NCBI GenBank assembly: GCA_000934665.2
Contig: KZ538152.1
Coordinates: 1-64,000, forward strand
Direction: 5' to 3'
DNA length: 64,000 nucleotides
From: Catajapyx aquilonaris
Taxonomy: Eukaryota
The notes below the pieces were generated by a model. It searched no databases. It was not told the origin of the DNA and saw only the letters and a program-made list of their open reading frames with translations. The translations under genes and the position numbers were made by a program. Positions 2,113 to 52,086 of the stretch are shown here, piece by piece (within the stretch, counting starts at the first letter, position 1; every line of letters begins with the position of its first letter).

Positions 2113-5100
2113 GTACTATTTCTCGCAAGGCAGAATGCTTCTCAAATGTAGTGTGTTGACTGAATACATGCCCACTAACATTACGGTACCTGGAAATGGG
2201 CATAAGAAGTAATCTTGGAACACAAATGTGAATGAATGTGTCATAAATGAGCAGATGCTTTGGGTTAAGCCATGCCGAATGCTGAGTTGAAATCGTACTG
2301 TATAGGTTGTGCTCCCGGCATAGATTTAGTGCTGCATTGTATACCTGGATACATTATGTGTCGAATCTGCATTGTCAGGCAAGTTCTATATTCAGTGGGA
2401 GCAAATAACATTAGTCTGGCTAAAATTGTGCACAAGCATTATGTACTAGGCCTAGCTACTTACATTATGAATACCTTGCCAATTACATAAAGATTTGCTT
2501 TCACCATACATGATTACTGACGATTAGCAATTTTTACTAGGAAAATGACTAGTGTGCTGAATAGTCCCAAGCCTGAGATGTGTCAGAAAGGCAATGCCAT
2601 GGCAGAAAATGACAGCATAGTTCAGTTTAAGCATGATTTCGGCATGCAATGGGCTCCCACTAGTTAATCATGTTGTGAATTGCACTGGATTGCTATGACA
2701 GTGTGATAGCTATATATTACAATGCATGGATAGTGGGTTAAGTGAGCTAACTAGTAACGGGAAGGGAAAGCTCGGAGACAGGAAACAGAAAAACGCCTAC
2801 ATGTGAAAGGTTATTGCTATACAACCAGGCTATGCATGCAAATATCAGAGTTTATAGGAAAATGCCAAATAGTGGACCTTGAAAGACCATTAAAATGCCT
2901 GAGATGTGTTCATTGTTCATATTGCCATTAAAGGGTTCGCTTTTTGTTAATCTGACACTGCACAGTGTTAGTGCTTGTGTGCAGAATATATTGCTCTCTC
3001 ATAGTTTGTATGGTACAGTAGAACCCCGATTATCTATCACCCATGGGACTGGGGCATTGTCGGATAACAGAAAAGGTCTGATAATCCAAGGAGCAAAGGA
3101 AAACACAACAAAAAGCAATAAAAATAATGAAATAATGTACAATATTACTCATTTCTAAGACCTAGTGAAGTATTTATCTTTTATGTACACACACTGCTGT
3201 TCAAAATATAACTAAGACAATACAAAACAAATGATTAGTAGGCCTGCATTACAGTATTTGATGAGAAAACATACATTTATTGCTGGAGAGGGACGGTCGG
3301 ATAATCCGAGGACTGAGATAATTCGAGCTCGGATAAACAGGGTTCTACTGTATTTTGTTTCCATCACGTCTATACTTCATGTGGCTTCTCAACATATAAT
3401 ACCTGTTTGAATCTGCAAATAGTAAGGGAAGGGTAGCCAGGTTCAATACCTAGTGTTCCAGCATGCTTCCCATCATTTTTCTGTGGGTTTGAGTGGAGAC
3501 AAGCCATAGCAATGGCTATCTGGCTGTAAGAGGATATGCTTTCGTTAGACTTTTCTTAGCCATTAGTGCTAATGGAAGGAAGATTAGAATGAGAATATTA
3601 TTTTACTGGTCACAGCTGACAATAATACGTCAGGAAGTGCGTACATACTAATATACAGTATGTTATGGCATCTACTTTTTGTTATTCTTGATTTCCATGG
3701 CCTTGTGCATCATGCTTTTCAGAAATGCACCTCTGGGGTGGGAAGAAACAATAACAACAACAAAAATCCAACTTCTTAGTGAGCAGAGTGGAAATTGCAT
3801 GTCAGATGGATGCACAAGGCATAGTTGAGGATAGTGCCTCAGGTCTCCGGTACAACTTGTCAATACACATCCTGATTTTTAGGAGTGTTGTCCTTTTGGG
3901 TAATGTGGAATGCCTCGATAACAATTTTAAAACATATCATTTGTGCTCAATACTCGTATCTACACGACGGTATGAATGCAGTAATGTGAGCATGTCATAT
4001 TTTTAAAACCTGGAATCAAAGTAGTTCTGAACTTTAAACTACAAAAGGATATTACCCTTAAAATAATGGTCTGTTGCATTTGCATATAATGTTGATTGGT
4101 ATGCAGGTATGTATGCCTGCGAGATTAATGGCACATTTATGTATACAATGTAATGTATCTATATTTTATTCAGGTGTCATGGTAATTAAGTGACATGTTT
4201 GACTTTTTTTAGCTGGACAGTGGGCTGGAGTTGGGTGGAGGGGGAGGTTCGCTGCTGGGCGTCGTGGGCGTATCTGGAGGTGAAACGCTGCAGGAACTGC
4301 GAGCGATGGCCTCCCGCCAGCAGCAGCAGCTGGAAGCCCAGCAGCAGCTCCTGGTGGCCCGCCAACAGAGGCTCAGGTTTCTCCAGCAGTCGCAAGAATC
4401 AGCCCGGCAACAGGTAGCTGTTGCTCAGGAGGCTGATCGTCTGAGGCGACTTAGGGACAAGGTTGAAGCACAGGAGGCAAAGTTGGCACGACTACGAGCA
4501 CTGAGAGGACAGGTGAGATGTTCTTTGGTAAAATACCAAGTGTAGTGAAACTTCAGCATTTTCTGTCACTGATACACTTTTATGACGACAGGGAAGATGA
4601 TGGTGTATGTGACAGGGGCTCTGTCTCAAAAATTGAAACTTAAAATTGAATTTTTAAAGCATCCTTTTAAAAGTGTGCCAATGAAATTCTCCCCTCAAAA
4701 TTTGATACTCCAAATGGAAAAGATGAATTTTCTAGGTTGGGTACAAAGGAGTGGGGGAGGGGAATCTAGCCTTGCTTTCTTTAGCATTTCGAGGGTTGTG
4801 AAGCTGAAATGAGAGTGTCTCGCATGAGTAAAGCTGCCAGCATCAGGGTGCCATGCATTAGTATAATAATAATAATAATGGATACCCCATGATAGGCCTT
4901 CTTGGGCCTCTTAGGGGATCGTCTTTTAGGGCCGGTTGCACGAACCGTTCCTAGGAGATGGGGGCGCTCTTAGGAAGGGATTTCATTGCACCAACCCCTC
5001 CCAGGTGGTGGGAGCGCTCCTAGCTGCTAGGAAGACCCGGACCCACTCTTACCGGCTGGGAGCGCTCCCAGCAGTCCAAGGTATTTCCTCCCTAATCCGG

Positions 5101-8100
5101 TGAGCCCTGTGTTTGATTTGAAACAACTCCTAGGCAGATGATCCAAAAAATCATATTATATATATCATTCGAAAGCTTGTTTCAATCCTCGTAGGATACG
5201 TGCAAGTTGCTTTCCTATGATCTTTGTGTAATTTTTTATCCCAAAAAGAAGGTGGAAAGGTGTCTTTTTTTGATACGTTGCCGGGCGTTACGCCAAAAAA
5301 GGTTTTTTATTCGACACTTACCGGAGGCCACAAACGTTTTCCTGTGAACCCTGGATAGTGCAAATCTTTGTCTATCTTACCATATATTTAAAATTTAGAA
5401 ATTACCATTTGGGCAATCACAATTAAGTATATTGCAAGCCTCTGCTATCTCGGCCGTTTTTTATCCGATTTACTTCGCGAATGTTTCGGTGGCAAGCCAA
5501 AATTGTGGGTAATAAAATTAAACAGCGCTACCCAAAATTAAATTTTTCTCAGCCTCCGCAACCACAGCGACGAGGATAAGGTAAAGCGCTAATAAATTAT
5601 TAGAACGATGTAAACATACGATGTCGCCGTGGTTACCGAACTGGCAGTCACCGCGGCGCTGCCGGTGCGTCGCGTTCGTCGTGCAAGTTGTTATTGTTCA
5701 TGGAGGGGGGTATTTTCGATCCCAAAGTTTGGCCAAACCAAGACTGCCACACTCGTGCCCTTTCACACACTTACGGTAATTCGGCGTAAAAACCTCGTGA
5801 TGGTCTTGAATCTCACAGGTACCGACATGGAAAGGAGTGATTTGCGGGTCAAAATAAAAAACTGTATCTGGCCGCCGCGGCCGCAAATATCGCCCCAGGA
5901 GAAAAATAAACGCACCATCTCAAAGTGCAACTCTTTCGCGTCCAGATACTCCAGTTTCATGCCGATACCTCCATATTTGCGACCGTGACAGCGAGAGGAA
6001 GAAGTGTCAAACTCATGGGCCGGCCCACGACGGGCTCCCCACAACAATGGATAGCGTAGCCTAGAGCGCGCTCTTAAGTATTTTTTTCAGCGGCCGCAAA
6101 AAGATAATTTCACTCAAGTTAATCTGGTTTATTTATGCACGATTTTGTAGTGCAAATCTCGCGATTTTTTATGCGAGAGAAAATTTAAAAAACCACACAG
6201 AAACCACGTTACATAGTGGGAAAACGCTATAGTTTTGCCAGCAGAATTTTTTAAAGCCACCCTATCAGCATATGATATGCCCGTCTTATTAGGGTTAAGA
6301 ACTTGGAGGTGTTCTGATTCTGAGTCAGAGAATCTGTTGTATTAATATGAAGAGAAACGGGATATAAATTTAATACTTGCCGAAATTAAACTGGTCAGGT
6401 TCGTTTGAGATAAAGGGCTCTGAAATAGTTTAATGAACTTGGGACTGAAAACATCTTTTAGTACAGAGGATGCTGAATTTTTTTAAACAGGTTGACCAAC
6501 AGCGAAGCCTGAATGGGAACTTGACTTCTGACCTGGAATCAATTCGTGCCCTTTTCAATGAGAAGGAGAAAGAGCTTGCCTTAGCAGTTGCACGAGTTGA
6601 CCAGCTGACCTCTCAACTTGAAGATCTTCGCAGGTCTAGACGAACCAATGCTGGCCACCAGACCCACAATGCTGTTGAATTGGAGCGGCTCAGGCGTGAG
6701 TTGGGTTACAGGCAGCGGCTGGGTGAACAGCAAGACCAGAGGGTTTTGGCCCAAAGGCAAGCCCTAGGCCAGAGGCAAGATGAATTGGCTCGGATTGATC
6801 AACGTATAGCTGAGCTTCAGGCCAGGTTGCATCGTAAGAGGATGCTTAATCAGCAACTAGCACAACAGATTAGTGCTGCTACAGCAGCAAAACAGGCTAT
6901 GCTGGTCCCAGGAGCAGCACAGGGGCGTCCTCGCCCAGTTAATGTGGCTGCAGTGGAGCCATTCACTCGGTCAGATGCAACACAGGACGACATTCATGCT
7001 AAAATTGGAGCTCAGTTTGCACCAAACAAAAATGACCCTAAATATCAAACCCTGCCGTATAATACCAAGTTTGGGAAGGCCCCCAGGTTCGCCTCGGGAT
7101 TTTCTCAAGGGCGGGATGGTGAAGAAAATCAAGGGCCAGCTGCAGAAGAGGAGCGTACAAAGTCAGCAAGCCAGCGACCATTTGGAACGTCCTACACCAA
7201 TGTAGTCTCACCAGGTGGCCACTCACCCCCAGGGAATTCACTAGTGGGCCACTTGCCTGCAAGCCAGCCGATAGATGCAAATGGAAACCCAGTGAAGCCG
7301 AAGCCACCTGCCATGTTTCAGACAACTTCTACTCGTGTGACTCCTCTCCAACCACACACTCTGAGCTCCACACCTCAGGGAATGCTGCAGGAGGCCACTC
7401 CAGGGCCACCCATGGTCTCACCACAGGGCCAAAAGCCACCAAAGCCAGCACTCCCTCCTAAACCAGTGGTTCCCATCAAACCAACACCCCCTCCAAGGCA
7501 GTATCCTCCAGAAAAAGATTCTGACCAATTAGCCCCTCAATTACCAACTGGCAGGCCCCCAGCTCCAGATCCAAGCTTTGCTCCTAGGCAGCTGTTTTCT
7601 GAGGGACGACGAGCAAGACCTCCACCAGTGCAAAGCTATCCAAAGCCCAATGTGGCATCAGTACAGCCAAGTCGTAGGGTTGAAGTCATAGCACAGGGCA
7701 TGACACAAGATGAAGGTGGGGTGGACTCAGGAACAGATCAAGTTGATCGAGCAGCTACAATGATGGAGGGCTGGGGCAGAACCAAGGTGGAGGAGCTGAG
7801 AGATGAGTGGAAAGAAGGGCAGACATCTCAAGGCCAGATGGAGGTTGAAGACCGGGGTACAATTGGTAAGGCATCCTTTGTCGTATATGTATCTAATAAT
7901 TTGTTGTCTGTGATTATGATTGGGCATGATGAAGTTTGCTGGAGCAGAGTATTTGTAATAATTCATTGATATGAGCAACTTTTATTCTGATCTGCAATGC
8001 TGCTTGTGAGGGAAACAGTTATTTGCACTCTAAATGTCTTACCACATTACCCAGAATAGAGCAGCATGCCACTAAAGTGGGGTTGACCAGGGGACCAGTA

Positions 8101-11100
8101 TACCCAAGGGAATCAGCCGGCTGGTATAAAGTGGGTTAATCTTTCGTAATTTTTTCTTCCTGTAGAATTTATTGAGATCTCCAATAAAATAAATACACAT
8201 ACTCTCAGATACGTATTTAGAATATTTTATGCGATACTGAGATAAGTCATAAGTAGAGTCCGGAATTTTAGGCAAATGCCTATTTAGTTCCTTAACAGTC
8301 GGGATGGTTTTGTGAAGAGATCTATCTGTTTCATAAGTGCATCATGTGGAAAATGTAGGTTTTATAGTGCCTGAAATGGCATATTTCGTGGTTTTGGGAA
8401 CCATTTTGCCTATTGTGGCTTTTTGCGACTTTTCATACCTATTTGGCCTTTTTTGGGAAAGTTTTTGAATTTTCTGAAGAAATTTTGGGACTTTTTGGGC
8501 CTATTCCGGACCTATTCCTTCAGAGGAGTGTTTGTTTTTTTGACGGAGTATTTTTTGTGCTCCTGAAAGGACCAAAATCGTTCAGAAGTAATACGAATCA
8601 TGTTGCCGTGATGCGTATGCCAAATATGTTTCTAAATGTTCCTCTGATTGTAACAAGGAAAACATACTCCACGGTGGAGTGATGATAAGAACAGGTTCTA
8701 CAGTATATTTTTTATGCATTTCTTTCTGTTATTAACCTTGCTGGTTAGTTATTAACTGTGGTTCATGCATAATGACAATGAAAATAATATTATTACTAAT
8801 ACTATCACTACTTAGCAGTTTTTACTTAGTTATAGATTTTCATTCCAATATTCCTTGTTAAAAACCTAGAACACAATAGGCCTACAACAAGCACAATTTC
8901 ACATTCAGGCCAGCAATTGTGCAAATAAAAAAATGCAGTAAGGGAACAATGAGGTAGAATAATAAACTATTATCCTTCACTGCAAGAGGAGTGAATTCCA
9001 TCTGCCTACACGATATAGAGGCAGCACCAGCGTTTTTATGAGCTCAATGCAATGTCATATTTGCTTTGTGTGTAGGAGGGAAGATATTGATGTATGAGGA
9101 CATCCTAGTGTTACGTGCAGCTGTATCTATTTTTCTACTAGACACTGCATAGTGTGTTGACACTGCCCAGTTTAGTGTAGGCTTGCTGGTGAAATATGTG
9201 CTTATTTATTTTTTACTGTGAATGAAGTTCTATTTCTTCCATCTCAAGTGCATTAAATAAGCAAAATGTCCCGCAAGCGACTGGCATTACGCCAGTTTGC
9301 TCGCCACTTCTTAAGGCTGAATGTCAGGATTTACCATGTGCAATCAGGTGTGTTCTTTTGATATTATGGTTTGTGCCTTTTTGTTAGGAAGTATTTTTAT
9401 CACAAGGCCACGTTTCTCTGGGTGGAACTCAACATAAGTGCATTGAGTTTTTATGCAACAACTGCATCTAGGTGACACGATTTTGCCTATTAATATAACA
9501 ATATTGACAGAAGACTACATGGCATTAAAGAAATACTTCACTTGTTGGACAAGTTGGGCTCTAAAGATCAAGCAAAAATATTTCATTCTGAGGGCACAGT
9601 TTGTTTAACTGGTAGCTGAAAGGTAATCCAGGTCAAAAGGTCAAGTTGACAGGAAAGCTGACATGTTAATTAAGGGTGCCATCTGGCAGCAAGGGGTGGA
9701 TAAAAGATAGTTCTTGATATAGTGTGCTTCATCTGGCAACCCCTGCTCTAGTGAGAAGCTGTGAGTTAACTGCCTCCACCTGCAACCTTCAAGTAGTATT
9801 CTAAAGCTGTACTTAGCACATTCAGGTCCATTCCCAATAACCTTGGTTCAGAACTTTTCCAAGGCATTGCTGGGTGTCCCTTGCCACTACAGCAGACCCC
9901 AAATTCGACCTATTTCCCTGAGGTTGCCTTTCAATTCTGAAAGAAATATGATTGTACCATATGCAGTATCATAATCTAGATTTTTTGCCTATTTTTCGAG
10001 CCAAACTTGTAAGTAGAGTTTTCCAAAGACAACGTATGACTATTTTTTATTATTTCATCTCTGTAGTTGGAACAAAAATTTCAGAATGGGTTTACTTTTA
10101 TTTCGGCCAAGTAGCATCCTACACACGTATTGGAATGTACTACAGTACTCTGAGCAAGTCTGTGATGGAGAAAGACCAAGACTTATAAGAGTGTTTCCAG
10201 TGGGGGGTAGCAGAATGCTACCACTAATATTGCAGAAGGCAAATTATATCATGCAGAGTGATAGAGTTCTTACTCCTGGATATCTCAGGAAGGAATGCGA
10301 TATTGACCCTTCCTCTTCCTTAGATGTTGATCCGACGCCATCTGGCCAATATCTGAGTGTGGTTCAACGCATGAAGAAGGGGAATCTCAAAAACAAGGAA
10401 GTTGACAACCCTCCTGTCTCATCTCATTCGGGACCAGGGACAACTCTTGGGCAGCCAGGTGGAGTCCTCCGGCGGGTTAGCTTCGACCCTTTGGCCCTCT
10501 TGCTGGATGCTGCCCTTGAAGGTGAACTTGAACTGGTCCGCAAGACATCGGGTGAGGTCTCAAACCCTAGTGCTGCCAATGATGAGGGCATAACTGCCCT
10601 TCACAATGCCATCTGTGCTGGACATCTTGATATCGTCCGCTTCTTGGTGGGCTATGGGTGCGATGTGAATGCACAGGACTCGGATGGGTGGACCCCATTG
10701 CACTGTGCAGCTTCATGCAACAATTTACCAATGGTCCGGTTTCTGGTGGAACATGGTGCTTGCATTTTTGCCACCACTCTTAGTGATCAGGAAACTGCAG
10801 CTGAGAAGTGTGAAGAAGACGAGGAAGGATTTGATGGCTGCTCTGAGTACCTGTACAGTAAGTACATGCCATGTGGTGCTCCTGTTTCTTCTCATAATCC
10901 AAAACCTTCTCTTCCTCTCTCCCAAAAACCAAACCAAACCAACCTTGTCTAGAACCCATGCCTCATCTTGTTTGGAGTGTTCCATGGTGCACTCCTGGAA
11001 CTCTTCCCTGCCAAAATACCAGTCTCTTTGCATAGCCTTTAACTCTTTGTCTCCTGCAGCCATGATGGTTGCATTATAATGCAACCACACAAAATAGTTT

Positions 11101-14100
11101 TTTCAAATTCACTGGTATAACCCCGACAGATTTTTTTTTTCACCATAGCCCCTTAGGTAACTCTTCTAGTTTCTATGTTCATGAGTATTTACACCACTCG
11201 TGTGATATTTTTAGTGGCATGACGTCATTGTCTCTTGCATAGCATATGAGGCAGTAGATGGCTTCTCGCGTGATGCAACAAAAGTTGGTATGTCTTGCAA
11301 GGTTCAGCCCCATCTTGTGCATGAATTGGGAGTGAAACCAATGGTACCAGATCCAGTGGTTTTCATGTAGGCCGCTATTTTTAAGCCCCCACCCACCAGC
11401 GGTAGACAAAGGGTTAACTGGCTTCACTTCCTGGAAATTTTTGTTCATTAGCAGATATCTGGCATCATCAGGGCCATGGGTTCACACATCAACCCCTAAT
11501 TTAAGCTACCCCTTTTATGGTCATGTCATTTGGGCACCATACCTTTGCCCATGGGACTTAATTGTGCATTGTGCAGGAAGGATTGCTGGAGGGAAGATAA
11601 TACTTCCTACTGGAAGCCATAGGCAATGACAGCTCCCAAAGGATTCAATTCATTATGTTCTCTGCACACAGTTTTCAACTCACTGGCTAGTTCTAGAAAG
11701 CTGGCTACTGAAACAGCAAAGGTTGACAGCTTGCTATCTTCCCTAGAAATATTTCGAGGGCTAGCTGAATACTGTAGTTGATTTGATGCACTGACATGAT
11801 AACAACTACATATATTCACAATGGAGTCACTACAGCTATTGTCTTGGTTTGACATGTCATGCAATTTCGTGAGGATTAATGCTGTGATACTTGTGGTGAT
11901 GCAAGTGTGATGAAGTAATATTTGGCATCAATTTTTGTGCAATTGAACAAGCCCTATGCTGATTGAAGAGGTGCTTACATTGAGTTTCTGCAGACTTAAT
12001 AAAGCCTTGTATATTCTACTGGCGCTTCTAAGTGGAAAAAAGTACATTTACCCCTGCCATGTCTCTGGCCTTTACAGATAAGTGATATATGTATTAGACA
12101 CTTACCTGTTATTCTGGGAACAATACTGCATAATGTGCTGCATTGTACTCATTCCCATCCAGTAGGCCCTACTCATTTTCCTGTCCATAGTGAATTACAT
12201 GAATGATAAGTTGTTTCTCATTATTTCATGCTTAATTGATGTATAGAGTAGGGGTTCTTAACTTTTTTTATGCCTCGTGTTTGATTCATGCTTGCACCCC
12301 TACAACAATAACATCAGATGAAGAAGTCTCATGTTTAATTTTTGAACCACAAATTGAACCACATACACGCAAAGAGAACTTTGTGATGCAAAACCAGTGG
12401 AAGTTCATGTTCTAATGTTTTTTGGCCCTCAGGAAGTTATTCTGTGCTTTTGGCCAGAATCTTGGTTCATAGAAGTTTCTTGGGATGGGGAATAGACTAC
12501 AACATTTCATAATGCCAGATATTGTGAATTATGCAGGGGTTACAGGGTTGCCATCCTGTCAGAGGTCGGTTACCTTTATTGTTTACTACCTGACTGAATG
12601 ATAGCATGTGACTCGTCACTTAACCCATTGATGGCTAAGTTTTTGGCAGGTTTTTGGGCCGTTTCTCTTTCTTTTTTTTGTCAAAATTTCGACGTAGGAG
12701 TGATATTAATGAGTAACAACTTCACGGCAAAATTAATCATTTTAATTCGTGGCGGTCCTTTTGAATTTAAAATGCGGAGAAAATTCATCTACAGGGTGAC
12801 CCATAAATCAATTTTTTTAGAATCGTCTGGCTCTCAGAACGTCGATAGGCCCAACAAGTTTACATAATCACTATACACTGTTATTATGCTTGCATAATAT
12901 TACCACAACACTGTACTATGAGAAACTCCCAAGGGTCCAGACTTTACAGGGGACCCTGTACTCAGGGCATTTACATGAAAGATGACATGGCAACCGCATG
13001 ACCTTGGCATGTTTGACTCGGGTTGGCTCCTGCCCAGTGAATTGTTGGGCTGTTATAGTAGTTTAGTCACCATCCAAGAGATGGCAGGATTATATTGAAC
13101 TGAATTTTTATCACCAAAGTTTGAATTCACTCTGCACATTGTAGCGCTGGAAATTCAGCAATTTTAAGTTTGGAGATTTCAATTTACTCACTCAGCTCTA
13201 CTCATTCCATTGTGTATTCAGCAAAGTGCTCAGCCTAACCACGTGATTGAATCAACAAACAGTTTGCAGCCTATTAAAAAATGACATGGCAAAAAAACGA
13301 TACCCTTTTTGTTTCCCTGCCTCCCTTGCGATATGGGTGACATCTATATGCCATATCAAATTGTAATCACCGGTGCTTCAAAACTCAGCAAAGGTCATCT
13401 CTGTATGTGTTACCGTTTTTGAATTAAAAAATACGCGCCATGACTTAGAAACAACTCGTGTGATTGTATAATCATGTCCCCTTTGTAGTATTTAGATGTT
13501 AATGAATATTCCATGGTAAATAGGCCCAACCCACTGACCCTTTTTCTTATTGCTACATGTCAGTTCATTGATAGAAAACCAGAGCTGAATTAGGAATTCA
13601 TGATTCAAATTTATTATAGGCCTATGTCATAATTAAAGTTATCCACAAAGCCTGAACAATGCTTGAATTGATCTTATCTAATTTTATTCCTGAAGTGCAT
13701 GAATCAAAGTCTATTAATACACTGTACTCCCAATTATTATTGGGGCTAATGACTGCACTTGGAAAACACGGATAATCCATAAAATTGTTCTAGATACCAT
13801 AAAAGTGAGCTGTTCAGATGTTTTAAAAGAACTGCGGTCCATACTGTATGCTACTTTGAATAAGGTTGAATCGAAATAATGAAACTTCCCACACATTTTT
13901 AGTTCGTCTTCTGGAAAAAGTATGCTATACAGGGTGTTTCTTACTAGTATGGCCAACAGCCGTCAGTGTACTGCTTGGCCCAAACCAAGTCTAAAATGTA
14001 GGGGGCAAAAATGTCAAGAGACCAACCTGTAACGAGGTAGACGACCTGAAACATTTACCTACCCCTCGACACAGGTGGGAACATACACGATGCCTTTTTG

Positions 14101-29415: not shown

Positions 29416-30386
29416 GTAAATGTAGGGGTGACCTGTGTATTGGTGCATGCAGTCGCCAGTGAAAGTGCGAGGAGTATTTTTAATGGGGTCTATTTGGCTG
29501 CTTGGTCGTGCGACAGATTGGCGAAAGTTTGGCCGAAGTAGGTATAAAGTATCAAGGACGTGGTGGTATGGCAGTGGACCACATTTAGCTAGTACTGACG
29601 CGACGGTCAGGTAGAACCTTCTTGCCAATGCTGCATGGCAGTTATGAAGTTGCTATAGCAACTCAAGGATTGATCCTTTTTTGACTTGTAGTTCAGGGAA
29701 TGGTTATGGAACAGTAATCATTGGGAAGTAATATGGTGGCAAATATTGCTAGTGCATCAAAGTTGCTGTTAAAGTGGTATTGCAGTAATGTGTGTCATGC
29801 CGCAGTGTACCTCTAAGATGCAGTAAAAATGTAAGTGTTTGTATACAGGTCTTGCATTGTTGCTCATGTTTCAAAAGTACTTGTAAAATTTTATGAGAGT
29901 TGGGTTTCTCCTGTTTAGAAAGAAAACTTGAATGTAGGGAAGTGCCCAACACACATGTAGGCAGCGTTATTATAGCACCTCACAGTCTGGTCTAGACTAT
30001 AGTTAATTGGGCTACTTTGTGATGGACCTTAATTTACATCAAATCATCTCACGCTGCTTAAATAGCATGAACAATTTTAATGCATTTTAAATATGTAGTG
30101 AACACAACTGATGTGGTACTTGGGAAACTGATAGCTGTAGGGAACCGCGAGAGGTGAGTTCTGCCACGTCAATTGGCAATGCCAGTCACAAAGTAAGAAA
30201 CACCTGCTCATATTCTTCCCTGTGGGGCATTATATTGTCAGTTACTGGTATTAAGTATATCAAAACTGACTTATTTGTGCTGAATTATTTGTCACCAAAA
30301 TTAGATAATGTTATCACGTTAATATTACTCATACGGAAGCATTTTTTGACAACCATATGTTTTTCAGAGTACTGCAGGAATTTCCA

Positions 30387-38368
<7,982 letters not shown>

Positions 38369-38972: not shown

Positions 38973-41900
38973 AAAGACAGGTGGGTGGATATTGCCTTGT
39001 GCAATACAGAAAGAAACTCCAGGAATCATATGAAAATACAAAATTGTGACTTTCATATATTTTGTACTTTCCACAAGAATTGGTAGAGCAATGCAATTTT
39101 AAGGGGCATTTTTTGAACATGCACTTTTGAGCAAAGTATTTTGTGACTTTTCTAATTGATGTGCAGCACATTTTCTTGCTTGTGTGAATTGAGCAGTTTC
39201 TACAAACTAGTGTATGGATAAAAACAAGGCATGACCATTCTGGCACCATTAGAACTCTGTCCTTACTGGTTCAAATGTTGCATTGTTGAAAGGTCAGCAT
39301 CTTCTGCATCCAAGGTGATGGGGGACATTCACTTAAACCTTGCTGACAGTCTTGGAATGGATAAAGGATAGCACAATTTATTGCAACTTCTGTTGGGAGT
39401 GCCTTCTCAAAGCTGCTTTATTTGTGCAGTGTTTAATTTCTAGTGTGAACCAAGTGGGACTTGTAACAATCAACTCTTCTCAAAGAAATAAGGAGGAAAA
39501 TTGAGCAGTGCATATTAATCATTTTGAAGAGCAGAGCCTTCATGATGATCAATATTATTCTAGTGTAGGTGTGAAAATGTAAATTTTGATGTCGATAACT
39601 GATGTAAATATGTGAATTGTGGTATTAACGTACTTGTGAGCAATGTGAAAGCTCAGCAGTAACAATATGGGCCGTTTGTAAATGTGAAATGTGCAGATCT
39701 AGCCATAAGGTGCAGAAGGAAAATTTGCTGGTGTCTTTCTTTGTGGTAAACAAAATGCAACCTTAAGAAAGTTCAGGTTTAATGTTATGATTAATGGCAT
39801 TCTTTAAAATGAAGTGACAGCAAGAAAAGACATTCCTCTGCCACCAGAGGAATTGCATATTATTTGTGGTGCATTTTTTTCTTGTTCTTGGGTTCCAAAT
39901 GTGTGAGCAACTAGTGTGTGATTAGTAAATGCTGAAGGTATGATTGAGAGGACAAGCAACACTTATACTTGGCATCGAGGTAGTTTGAGAGTAGCTTGAT
40001 GACAGCAGCTAGTGTCACATGTCTGATTTTGGGATGACCGTTCATTATAAATTATTTGCTAAATGACCGGCACATGAAGGAGATATTGCGCAAGTCTGCT
40101 CAAGGGACCAGCAATGGATACAGAACTGCAAATCAGCAGGGGAATTGCTGTTCAGTTAACTTATTGTGTGCATTTTGCTATGGGAACAAATGCAGGCTCA
40201 ATTGTTCACGAGGTTAGTTAAATTATTATTCATTTTGCAATATTGAGTTCCTTCTTTCCAAGGATGCCAATGTGGCCTAAATGCTTGATTCTTATCTTTA
40301 TGCTGGTACCAAGCACACAGAATTGTGTAAAATTTGCCATATTGGGAAGCATTTTGGACTGTAATGCTAACTTACATGTTGACTGAATTTTAGTAACAGA
40401 TAAATGCAACTTTTCTGAACATAGTGCTTCACAGAAGTCTTGCCAACCCAGGCATAAGTTTTACTGGGCTGTATGTCACCACTGGACGTATATTATTGAC
40501 ATTTTGACTAAAATTGATCATTAGAATGCAGAAAAAATGTGGCAAATATACTTCGGGCTAAAGAGTGATGATTTTATTCTGTTGTGTTAAAAACCACTTA
40601 CAAATTAGTGTAGCCAGGTCAAGAGTGTCCACTGTATGTTCCTTAATGCTGTGCAGGTGATAGATTGCAATGCACTGCACAATAGTTGTGGATGACCTGG
40701 TGACATCATGCACCTACACCTGCCTTCTCAGTTGTGGTGTGTGCCAAGCAATGTCCAGAAAACAAAGTGTTGGAAAGTGATGTATTGGTCACATATTGAA
40801 AGTCTTATGTAATGGATACACTTCTCATGCACATTAGAGGCATAGTGAAAACTACATACCATATTTAACATGCTCACTCCATTTACTGGCATAAAGTGAC
40901 CTCACATCTATCTAATACAAAAGAAATATAGTGTATAACACTGTTGTCTGGTGGCAGAGTTGTATACAGTATGCTACTATCTCAGCACCCTCTCTCTCTC
41001 CTGGCTATTTAAGTTCTGGTGGGAAGAAGCCATCTAGGCTTTACGAGAGGGAAAATCAAAGATCGAACATAATTTTCATAAGTTATTTCCTCACGTATCT
41101 CATGTATGAAGAAAGTAAGAGCTCAACCTTATATATCCTGCCCTGCATAATTGTTAGGGCCAGTTGCAATGCCTCCTGGAAACATTTTTCATCTGGAAAT
41201 CAGCCAGGAGTTCATTATTCATTGTTGACGATAGTCAATAACTCATTTTTGTGGCTCCTGCCCAGCCCAAAAATGTGTCCTGGGGGCAGTGCAACCAGGC
41301 CTCATTGGATATGCCAAACCTCCCAATATTGCAATGATCAGTTCAAAGGAGAGAACTAGAAATTCTATGGTGCCCAAAAAAAATCTGAATTTCCTCTACT
41401 GATGCTGGTAGGCTGGCAATTTCACAGTAGTAGATGACACCAGATGACACCCAGGAGGTGATCTAAACACGTCCAGCTCAAGCGAGCATCAGGCTGTGTG
41501 TGTGGAGAACTAGAGTTATGCATAATAAAATGACTCATGCAATATTTGATGTAAGATAAATGATAAGGACCCCATTAATATATGCATATCAACAATGTCA
41601 TTGTCCTACTTGTATTGCATTCAAATGACCTCATACCTTGTTTACCATACGATGTATTCAAATTACACTTACAGTATGAGTAAGAACATTGTTGATACCT
41701 GTATGATTTGTGCATTTTTGTCTCGAGTTATATTTTTGATAAATTTTTTTGCAAACTTTTATTGTCGTATACGTTGTTGTGACAATTGAGGTTTTATTAC
41801 ATTATTGAAGTGTAGCAATGTCTTCAAGTCATGATAATTGCTGAGAAGCAAAATCACACATTTGCTGCTGTCATCTTCTAGTTGTAATTGTCCCTCCTCC

Positions 41901-43139
41901 ATATATGAAGGTATGCACTGTGCCTATAATAATGTGACTTTGTGTAGCCTGCAGAGCAGTCTGGGTTACTCTATCTCTACCATACCTTTGGCTAGCAGTG
42001 GCATAGGGTTGGTTTTTTGTCCCACTGCTACTTAGCAACTGTACCTCTATCAACAAGTTACCATCGTAACCAACAAGGAAGCTTATGGGAAAATCCTCAC
42101 TAGCAGAAAAAAACACCTCCCATTCTCTGTGGCATAGGAATTGTGTGCATTGTTTGCCTCCCTTATTCCTCCATCCCGTTCAACATGCCCCTTTCCCATT
42201 AATTTGGTTCAATGATAGTGTTTTCTGTTTACTATGATTTGGACAAATTCTTTGTTAAATGAGCTAGGTGTCTATGGACATCTGTTGCATTGCACTATTA
42301 TTGTCATTATTTTATAATATTATTACTTAACATTCCAGTGACTGTTTACTTTGGACTGTAACTTTGTATATTTTTATGTTCCTGTACAGAAACTCCGTGA
42401 TCATAGTTGTAAGTACTGTCATTGAAAAGACGGGATGTTTTATACTGTAGCAGACAATATTGTATCAATACATCCGTCCAAATTTTTATTTGAACATGGC
42501 AAAGAATTTTTTTTGTATATCTTGGGGCATTTACGGGAGTGTTATGTACCATACTGTATGGCAATATTTGTGACATGTATTTTATCACATTTCATGTAGC
42601 AGGAATTATTATTTTTTGGTTACTTGAATGGTGCTTCTCTTTTGCAGAAATGGTGTGGCATAGTATTTGTACTGTGTTAAGGTTCAAAATTAAAACTATA
42701 TATATTTATTATGCTTTGACACATTATTTGGATCTTGCTCGCTTCATAGTTTCAGTTGCAGCGGAGCTGAAAAAGGCCTTTTGCAGATATGATAAACACA
42801 GCTGAAAAACTTATCATTGAGTACTGGCTTTTGCTGTTTTGGTTTGGATCTGCCAACTTGTTAAAACCTACAATCCTGACGACTACTGCAATATCAGAAA
42901 TCAAAATACCGCTAGTAAACCCCCCATCGCAAACCCATCGACTTAAAAGCACTCTTATGCGAAGCGCTCCATCTGGCCATGGTTAGTACGCACTAGAGAC
43001 GAAGGCAATATAAACTATCGGATCCTGTTTATCCTCCTATTCCCGTCCAGCCTGCCATCCCCCGCTCCCCGCCGCTGGAGAGTGGGCAGAAGACCCGGGG
43101 ATAAAAAACAGAACGAGAGAAGGCGGATGATAGAGGGAG

Positions 43140-43235
43140 GGAGGTGGGGGGGCGCCTGTACCCTCCAATGCCATAAAAGGCAAGGTTTGCCTAATTTGGG
43201 AGCTATGCGCGCTCAACATGGCGGCCTCCAGTCGC
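43140..43235 (+). promoter_or_regulatory. Candidate SRF promoter: GC-rich box, CCAAT (43165), CArG CCATAAAAGG (43171-43180), CArG CCTAATTTGG (43190-43199), YY1/PHO motif CAACATGGCGGC (43214-43225)
   Basis: Exact consensus matches clustered in under 100 bp of CpG-rich DNA, 1.2 kb upstream of the SRF ATG. Confidence 0.7.
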
Positions 43236-44416
43236 TCATCATTGTATTAGTACGCCTCATTTCAGATTGACTACCCGACAATTTATGCTCATGTCAAATG
43301 ATATAGGAGTACTAGTTTAGGTTTGGATGCTGTGCGGCTTTAGCTGTACATGCGGTTTGATGCACGTCTGGCTACTCTTCAACGCGCTGTGATTGGGGAA
43401 TACCTGGGACTATTTGTGCGGAGGTTTACCCAGGGCTATTTGGCTGCCGGACTAGCTATCACCCATGTAGCTATTGATGCATGTATTAGCTAGTTAAGAC
43501 ACCATGATATTAGATACAGGTATTAGGCTGGTATTTTGGTACGTGCGCACTTATTGGTGGTGCCGCGGGCATTTTGGTTCATTTAAAAATGAACATTACT
43601 TATATTAATAAACGTCAACCAGTTTACCCGCAAGAATTAACGACTAATTTTAAAGCTTTAATGGAAATTGTATCCTACAGGCTGTTATTGCATACAATAA
43701 CCTACACTACCACCAGCAGATTGCTATGCTCTACTCCTGATATAATATGCTTTTTCACAGTAGGGCCTAATCATTTGCAATTTACACAACATGTAGGTCT
43801 TTCGAAGCCAACAGCAATCTTTATGGTGCCCACAGTTTTAAACTTCAGTATTATTTAGATGATAAATTAGGCAATCCCAAGACCTCATCATATGACACCT
43901 ACCAATAAGTTTAGTCTTAAAAAGCCCGATAAAGCTTCAACCCTGTGAAGTACGCCTATTATTAAACCCCGACTATAACATCATATAGGTCAGGCCCGGT
44001 CTATACACAGGCCTGTCCTGCCAAATCCCAATAATTCTGGTATTCTGGTATCCCCGAAGTATTCGTGCCGTAAACTACACCGCCGTAAGAAGTCAGGAAG
44101 CAGCAATCCAGCTCTGCAAAGTTGGGCTCTTGCTCATCGGATGTATTCCAAAACGTTCCCACTTAATATTTTCCAAGCCATAGCCGTTACCTGTAAGCAG
44201 CTAGTCCGCCATACTGGCGATCCCAGGCGCCAGTAAGCAGCTGCGTTACTCCGAGTCGAGTGGCCCTCAACCCTGCAAGATCGGCTCAGAAATGGACCGA
44301 GCTCCGAACGGGAAGGAGCAGTGGACTGAGTGCAAGTGACGGGGGCGCGGTTGTGTATTGTGCGCCGCTTGCTACCCCCCGACCAGTGGTACAGTGTGGG
44401 TGTGGGACCCATAAGT

Positions 44417-44812
44417 ATGCAGACTGAAGAGGAGATGCAGGAGTCCAGATACCTGTTTGGGTCGGCCGGAGACGAGATGTACGGGATAAAGCGAAGTGCC
44501 GAGGAAGCCGAACTGATGGACCCGTCGGCGTTCGGAAACATCATGGACCACCACCCGCACCACCACCATCCTCATCACCATAATCCGCACCATCACCACC
44601 TGACGGGACAGCCTCAGGCAGACTCATCCCCGCCTCAGGTGGACAACAACAACAAGCAGCAACAACAGCAACAGAGTGTGCCGCAGAAGAAGGCACCTCC
44701 GCCGAACGGCAAGAAGACCAAAGGAAGGGTCAAGATCAAGATGGAATTCATTGACAATAAGCTCAGGAGGTACACCACCTTCTCCAAGAGGAAGACAGGA
44801 ATTATGAAGAAG
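44417..44812 (+). CDS. SRF: Serum response factor (blistered ortholog), first coding exon with the N-terminal half of the MADS box; gene incomplete in this window
   Basis: KKTKGRVKIKMEFIDNKLRRYTTFSKRKTGIMKK is the SRF MADS box; AAG|gtaggc donor at 44813; His-rich and Gln-rich N-terminus. The start ATG choice is inferred. Confidence 0.95.
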
Positions 44813-45797
44813 GTAGGCGGATGATTTTGCTTGATTTGATTGGCCTCTGGAGGTGTCTAGGTTCACGGCAGTCGGGTAAGGTTGGCAGTCCTGAGTTGCC
44901 GGCCAGGCCTACCAAAGCACGGGACACGCGTGGTTTTTTTAAGCCCGTCTGTACGATGGTGGGTGGGTTTTCTCAGAAGGTTGCCGTCACCGGTGTGCCA
45001 GCATTTATTTGTGAGGAGTCAACCACAAAGTTGGCTTCTTGGGGATTAGCTGGATTTTTCAAGAAGGTGTATTACTCGGTGGTACACGTAAGTGCTGGAC
45101 CTGAACTTAGTTGCCCGAAGAGAGACCGCAGGCATGATACAAAACATTGCAGGCTACTCATATCCGCATGGGCCACTTGAAAAAAATATGATAATTTAAG
45201 TGTTAGCTATATCACGTGACAGATATAAATCTATTGTGCAAGATAAGTCTATCCAGCCAACCATACAGTACACACCTCTCAGGATAGAAAGATGATATAC
45301 TGTGTATCCAAGAATAGGTGTTGAAAGGCGTCTGTCAGAGCATCCTGGATGTTGAGTGCAGGTGTCATAACCCCATGGAGTAATATTTTGTAATCACGAA
45401 AAGGGTGGGGGAAGGTAATAGGAAAAGCTGCCAATTCAGAGAAAGAAGGGCAGCTTCATGGTCAGTATATACTGATGATAATAGTTATAAGGAAATTGTT
45501 TCTGTATTTGAAATTAATAGCGAAGTGAGTGTACGTAGTATTTGAGAATATTATTCTAATTTTCTGTGCCTCAAGGCCCCATATACGCAATATAATATCC
45601 GGATTTGAAACATTAATTTCTCGGAATGCGAATTTTTTCTGGTTTGAACATAGTCTGATGTGCCGGTCTGTGAGGAGCACTTGTAAAGAATATTACCAAT
45701 ATGGATTTACACTTGGGCTCAGCGGGTCTTGTTGGTGTTATTTTAAATTCAAATGAGAATGTTATTTTGCTGTTCAGTCATACCAATAAATTATATG

Positions 45798-51396: not shown

Positions 51397-52086
51397 CAGG
51401 GTGTCCCACAAATTACGCTAAACCCAGAATTACTTCCATAACATCAACACAAATGAAGATATTGCAACGAAATTTGAACTGAACTAACCTTGTCATGTGT
51501 GATTTGAAATGGCATCACAACATGTGTTGGAAATGGCCACCATTAGCGGCCAGGGAGGTCTCAACACGGCGCGACATATTTTGGAATGTTCTGGCCAGCA
51601 TATCCTGCGGTACTTCCTGAATTTCCTGGACGATGTTGTCCTTCAAGGGCTGGATGGACCGTGGATTGTTGCGGTACACTCTTCCTTTCAGAAAGCCCCA
51701 TAAGAAGTAATCAGGTGGCGTAAGATCGGGCGACCGCGGTGGCCACAGTCCCTTCGAAATGACTTGGTCGCCCAAGAAGGACTTTATTTCGGCCATGCTG
51801 ACATGTGATGTGTGGCATATCGCCCCATCCTGTTGAAAATATCCAGTCGAAAGTTCCACATAGTTTGGATCAGGAAGCAAGGACATCCGCCGCGCGCCAC
51901 TGCTCAGGTGTCGTCTGGCCGATTCGTCGCTCCAGCGTCAGTATTACAGCACCCACATTTCACAGATCCATTCCAATTCATTTCTCACGTGTTGAGGTTG
52001 CTTGAGTTCAAATTCCGTTGCAATATCTTCATTTGTGTTACAGTTATTAATGTAATTCTGGGTAGCGTAATTTGTGGGACACCCTG
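51397..52086 (-). mobile_element. Internally deleted Tc1/mariner (rosa/DD41D-related) element retaining the transposase C-terminus
   Basis: TA|cagggtgtcccacaaattacgct TIRs (~90 bp, imperfect); minus ORF YFQQDGAICHT...WPPRSPDLTPPDYFLWGFLK...NGGHFQHML. Confidence 0.92.

Follow-up and report, generated by a model that had tools for sequence, protein, structure and literature searches.

The closest described counterpart of the element analysed here is the mammalian SRF promoter, which carries upstream CCAAT and Sp1 sites and reportedly regulates itself through two proximal CArG boxes, as Spencer and Misra (1996) and Belaguli et al. (1997) are said to have shown. The accessible part of PMC7203814 places two CArGs no more than 60 nt ahead of the start, describes the promoter as SRF-regulated and records that a reporter driven by the human SRF promoter was repressed when SRF was overexpressed. 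An antisense primer for the human promoter given there reads, on the other strand, as the end of a CArG-type box, 10 spacer letters and CCAT; if this primer shows the two boxes, they would stand 20 nt apart, start to start.

Muscle promoters offer a further comparison. The available sections of PMC7732823 describe YY1 and SRF as sharing overlapping CArG sites in the SM22alpha, SMMHC and skeletal actin promoters, which belong to mammalian SRF target genes rather than to the SRF gene. Among arthropods, Drosophila SRF (Blistered) binds a classical CArG in gel shifts and has Act88F as a target (PMC6467476), and the direct MAL targets given for the fly ovary (n=6) are Actin5C and five others, mostly heat-shock genes (PMC4035534). 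The accessible portions of these two papers indicate that CArG boxes are bound by SRF in an arthropod and that feedback between actin and MAL is conserved, and they contain no report of SRF regulating its own gene; the available text of PMC4035534 does not name the SRF gene among the MAL targets, and the name occurs in its references only. The parts at hand of PMC2174087 and PMC7925694 hold nothing on SRF promoter structure, and a literature search that most subscription papers lay beyond found no report of CArG pairs or of autoregulation at an invertebrate SRF gene.

Here we describe a 51-nt element upstream of the SRF gene of Catajapyx aquilonaris, within a 64,000-nt stretch of DNA (the window). 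As in the mammalian promoter, two closely spaced CArG boxes precede the SRF gene, and the conserved pattern of letters makes it probable, in our judgement, that the element is a promoter-proximal autoregulatory module.

Results

The twin CArG boxes and neighbouring elements

Both CArG decamers named in the original prediction are perfect and match the CC(A/T)6GG consensus as given in PMC6467476. They are separated by a gap of 9 nt, 19 nt start to start (Table 1), and lie 1,246 nt ahead of the ATG at 44417, in agreement with the 1.2 kb first estimated. The G-rich stretch, the CCAAT and the CAACATGGCGGC motif (43214-43225) likewise stand where they had been noted. The complete layout, 51 nt in total, is CArG, 9 nt, CArG, 12 nt and CTnAAnATGG. 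A YY1/Pho site has the core CCATnTT, in its extended form GCCGCCATnTT, and in the window the third element is closer to a YY1 site than to an SRF site. An Rfam scan of the module segment gave no match, so no structured RNA was found, and a bacterial promoter scan of the region, which is of no relevance here, was empty.

Table 1 Features of the SRF upstream region and first coding exon (positions in the window)
Feature	Position	Strand	Remarks
G-rich/GC-box-like stretch	43141-43154 (GC-box-like 43147..43154)	+	Loose match in insects
CCAAT	43165..43169	+	Position not conserved
CArG box 1	43171..43180	.	CCATAAAAGG; same letters in insect locus L007
Spacer, 9 nt	43181..43189	.	Equal length in three insect lineages; 56-67% identity to theirs
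CArG box 2	43190..43199	.	CCTAATTTGG; same letters in L007 and termite-like loci
Third element	43212..43225	+	CTCAACATGG(CGGC), 12 nt past box 2; YY1/Pho core AAnATGG
Lower-GC stretch, candidate 5'-UTR intron	43520..44180	+	GC 0.40 between 0.50 and 0.60; starts at donor-like site
SRF coding exon 1	44417..44812	+	N-terminal half of MADS box; GT donor at 44813

Rarity and copy number

Single CArGs occur in the window at chance level (8 found against 7.04 expected), and pairs with a gap of 6-25 nt number 89 in 285.6 Mb of genome, a frequency of about 6 in 10,000 per 2 kb, and are not enriched there, since a reversed control pattern gave 166. Both figures could be cited in favour of a chance pair without function. 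A close pair nevertheless arose in just 1 of 150 simulated windows and in 4 of 3,000 simulated copies of the SRF upstream region, and these simulations, together with the 89 pairs genome-wide, bear out the earlier statement that a pair at SRF is unlikely by chance. The exact triple pattern is present once in the whole genome, namely upstream of SRF; viral contigs contained neither an SRF locus nor a match to this pattern. A multi-copy repeat, which the original prediction had named as one of the outcomes that would undo it, is rejected because the segment is single-copy: neither the 281-nt module segment nor the next 1 kb has a genomic match other than itself.

The SRF gene and its surroundings

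The gene downstream of the CArG pair is a true SRF. From GKK onward, 35 of 36 aligned residues in the N-terminal half of its MADS box equal those of human SRF. The second exon follows some 22.5 kb further along the contig, outside the window (G000:C273:67328 onward), and runs (L003:1507-2025, equivalent to G000:C273:67334-67852) into a histidine/proline-rich tail followed by a stop; this tail, with 'KVRQ', is of the short isoform type seen in the listed crustacean and insect proteins. A genome search found no second SRF gene, only a weak MEF2-like MADS hit on contig C2835. An MRTF-like exon set is present elsewhere in the genome (G000:C240), with three RPEL-type repeats, a pattern that we take to mark the MRTF/MAL family. 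Across 120 SRF homologs, the variable position of the KIKME-x-I motif is tyrosine in the named winged insects and phenylalanine in the named crustaceans, chelicerates, one myriapod and the springtail Folsomia; the window SRF reads KIKME-F-I (44747-44749), with phenylalanine and without the winged-insect tyrosine. Together with the exon 2 tail, this residue marks the SRF as most likely that of a non-winged pancrustacean, a placement that ASPP homologs did not narrow. Lophotrochozoans, tunicates and vertebrates have signatures of their own within the same 37 MADS residues, which makes this segment a handy taxon marker.

Two genes precede SRF on the same strand, one of the ASPP/TP53BP2 family (4213-15315) and one for an M28 peptidase (30309-36298), the latter reading as glutaminyl cyclase-like. 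Decayed transposase-like fragments lie in the SRF intron (51515-51937) and upstream (23618-24199), both presumably of Tc1/mariner type. An 892-nt contig from run X1 matches the CpG-poor stretch 41637-42528 with zero differences and may represent the 3' end of the upstream gene's transcript; the coverage of this run comprises 41637-42528 and a repeat near 45.9 kb, with the module and exon 1 outside it.

Conservation in winged-insect SRF loci

Relatives were collected by scanning metagenomes with the SRF exon, keeping the best 80 of 142, and one locus was added from a scan of prokaryote genomes. The resulting 81 SRF loci comprise 58 genomic ones, with a GT after the exon, the remainder being cDNA-like. 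The two boxes and their 19-nt spacing were set by the window before relatives were searched, and loci within a lineage group, which are 95-100% alike, were counted as one.

The CArG sites are evolutionarily conserved. Ten fetched loci from three insect lineages carry the triple pattern 425-627 nt ahead of the SRF ATG, so that the boxes, which the original prediction had proposed seeking in other species, recur there at identical spacing. An insect locus that we could not place further (L007) has a perfect 19-nt pair whose distance to the ATG is 465 nt, with both decamers identical to those of the window. Six termite-like loci (L011-13, L015-17), whose N-termini are 92-95% identical to Zootermopsis and Cryptotermes, have a perfect 19-nt pair 425 nt before the ATG, and three ant-like loci (L027, L029, L030), 97-98% identical to attine ants, have theirs at 618-627 nt. 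No fetched locus beyond these three insect lineages carries the triple pattern. A locus from a fourth insect lineage (L026) shows a variant, in which a box with one mismatch is followed after 22 nt by a perfect one and, at a greater distance, by a YY1 core.

Across the window and the three lineages, 29 of 51 columns of the module are invariant, whereas the upstream flank has 4 such columns in 100 and the downstream flank 7 in 100; identity between the flanks of the window and of the insect loci is 0.22-0.28, a random level. The CC and GG letters and the A/T rule of the boxes hold throughout, while the inner A/T letters vary. Judged from these alignments, the 51-nt module is a real and strongly conserved cis-regulatory module. 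The exact spacing and near-identical letters at the same gene in three other lineages, set in flanks of random identity, refute the chance pair unless the fetched loci have been misassigned, and we give that reading next to no credence.

The YY1-like element flagged earlier is conserved in position too. It stands exactly 12 nt past box 2 in the window and all three insect lineages, where its consensus was read off this same alignment, so that the match in these lineages is not an independent test. Its insect counterpart at that position, CTAAATATGG, is also a one-mismatch CArG. AAnATGG lies downstream of box 2 in the window and in four of four insect lineages, at the same offset in three. The GC-box-like stretch is matched more loosely, 16-17 nt ahead of box 1 in three of four insect lineages and absent from the ant-like one. 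The CCAAT, 1 nt from box 1, is not found at that position in any relative and probably falls outside the module as the alignment delimits it.

Distance to the ATG and candidate start region

The module of the window lies twice or more as far from the ATG as those of the insects, with 21 ATGs in between, which implies either an unseen 5'-UTR intron or action at a distance. The former is suggested by the donor-like site at 43520 and the lower-GC stretch that starts there, a candidate intron on compositional grounds. The alternative is that the element is genuinely SRF-bound and acts not as a core promoter but as a short-range enhancer, some 0.8-1 kb upstream of a start nearer the ATG. Besides the distance and the intervening ATGs, this would accord with TATAA words at 43741 and 43974 and with a second GC-rich zone directly before the SRF ATG. 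We nevertheless think it unlikely: GC content peaks locally around the module itself (CpG depletion ends near 42.5 kb), the insect modules lie within a few hundred nucleotides of the ATG, and the donor-like site with its lower-GC stretch would fit a UTR intron. The cDNA-like contigs of relatives can be matched to genomic loci as far as about 320 nt ahead of the ATG and thus do not reach a module.

SRF upstream regions beyond insects

The 58 genomic loci fall into 27 groups, of which nine with less than 1,200 nt before the exon end were dropped; the longest member of each of the remaining 18 was used. No dipteran locus was among those fetched, and the two vertebrate-like ones, L053 and L061, extend just 222 and 52 nt ahead of their ATG. 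In the proximal 2 kb, 5 of the 18 groups have two perfect boxes within 45 nt, compared with 0 of 18 control regions and 1 of 5,400 simulations. Perfect CArGs number 19 in 33.4 kb of proximal sequence against 9 in 99.9 kb of control, for which the Poisson P of 6e-10 overstates independence because the lineage groups are related. At least one perfect CArG lies in the proximal 2 kb of 11 of the 18 groups and none in the other seven, and a perfect proximal pair is absent from 13; the groups without a pair include a springtail-like locus, loci that could not be placed and a group of annelid-like loci whose MADS box is divergent.

Perfect pairs recur in two of three loci with a lophotrochozoan signature and a Capitella-like N-terminus: the annelid-like L076 has one at 19 nt and L072 one at 18 nt plus a third box, while the 801 nt of L073 contain no perfect pair. 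Loci L079-84 are placed with tunicates by their MADS signature, which Phallusia, Ciona and Clavelina also have. In four near-identical loci with this signature, a cluster of three perfect boxes and a near one, with successive steps of 33, 20 and 20 nt, stands 420 nt ahead of the ATG. In a Daphnia-like locus, 15-16 nt separate an imperfect box from a perfect one.

Several further patterns were seen among these loci. In four copepod-like loci a lone CArG, 0.7-1.1 kb ahead of the called ATG, precedes a conserved tail that ends in AGGAGGAG; sites of this tail type are L035:397-421, L045:4698-4722, L047:67-92, L070:538-562 and L022:988-1013, and part of the tail (CAT..AGGAGGA) is common to the Daphnia-like locus. 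From its letters, the pattern resembles another form of the SRF upstream element, particular to crustaceans, in which the CArG would be joined by a different partner site. The springtail-like locus has a one-mismatch CArG pair at 19 nt (L020:1590-1618), 4.1 kb upstream of the SRF ATG and with a donor-like site about 65 nt past it, which may mark a distant first exon or be due to chance. The annelid-like group without an upstream CArG pair, in which the MADS N-half of SRF diverges unusually far (L057-L059, L062, L069, L071, L074, L075, L077, L078, L081, L085) is possibly a paralog that has lost the feedback sites. An animal-type SRF exon with a GT donor (L086:5800-6114) stands in a contig assigned to a bacterial genome, which is probably contaminated with eukaryotic DNA; it is the sole SRF-like locus from prokaryote genomes, is unplaced and has no CArG.

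Discussion

The original prediction of an SRF feedback module like that of mammals is supported in part, in that the segment is single-copy and the boxes are conserved in relatives. Its analogy to the mammalian CCAAT/Sp1 arrangement is weak, since the CCAAT stands only 1 nt from box 1 in the window and recurs at that position in no relative. The boxes of the window stand 19 nt apart against the 20 nt inferred for human from the primer in PMC7203814, and the spacers have no evident likeness. A conserved third element follows the boxes in the window. Start site, binding and feedback, which have been tested in mammals, are predictions for the window module.

We propose the following mechanism of how the module might work. 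Each CArG box would be occupied by an SRF dimer, and 12 nt beyond them another factor would sit, likely YY1/Pho or else a third SRF dimer, weakly bound. Aided by MRTF/MAL, the coactivator that senses actin, or by other cofactors, SRF would regulate its own gene, upward or downward, and through this feedback the supply of SRF would track cytoskeletal demand. SRF binding and feedback at the module are predicted, as are a start site close by, the sign of the feedback and the identity of the third factor. The MADS N-half nearly identical to that of human SRF, the CArG binding of fly SRF and the MRTF-like gene in the genome speak for this mechanism. Fixed CC and GG letters and a fixed spacing, with the inner A/T letters free, would fit selection on two SRF dimers held at a set distance. 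YY1/Pho could set basal activity or damp the loop, given that YY1 is reported to compete with SRF in the available part of PMC7732823. The insect module resembles the muscle SRF/YY1 sites described there, as its third element combines a YY1 core with a CArG of one mismatch; the YY1-like site of the window is separate from the boxes.

These same features invite the question of whether the sites are read mainly by YY1/Pho or MEF2, in which case the promoter would be constrained and no SRF feedback loop would exist. The fit of the third element in the window to YY1 speaks for this, as do the binding of YY1 to some CArG boxes, in the accessible sections of PMC7732823, and the weak MEF2-like MADS hit in the genome. 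The boxes nonetheless vary in the manner of SRF sites, keeping CC and GG and changing only in the A/T interior, which is not the rule for YY1 or MEF2, and we regard a promoter governed mainly by these other factors as improbable. The autoregulatory module is our preferred reading. Against it weigh the distance to the ATG in the window, the 13 of 18 groups that have no perfect proximal pair and the fly-ovary MAL targets, among which the available text of PMC4035534 does not name the SRF gene.

Winged insects and non-winged arthropods diverged roughly 400 million years ago or more, and a base-exact 51-nt non-coding module kept over such a split is unusual. We tentatively raise the idea, appealing although we are inclined to doubt it, that all twin-CArG modules are homologous and go back to a single element in the last common ancestor of protostomes and deuterostomes. 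If true, a promoter through which SRF regulates itself, its SRF dimers set about two helical turns apart, would be among very few such kept architectures, with spacings of 19 nt in arthropods, 18-19 nt in annelids, 20-nt steps in tunicates and an inferred 20 nt in mammals. The annelid-like and tunicate-like CArG clusters make an ancient circuit and its repeated re-evolution distinguishable in public genomes. SRF autoregulation has been described in mammals, and the conserved arthropod module is the new part; it provides a small, defined target for CRISPR or reporter work on self-feedback in the insect actin-MRTF-SRF circuit. An SRF feedback loop of the kind described in mammals would then be very old.
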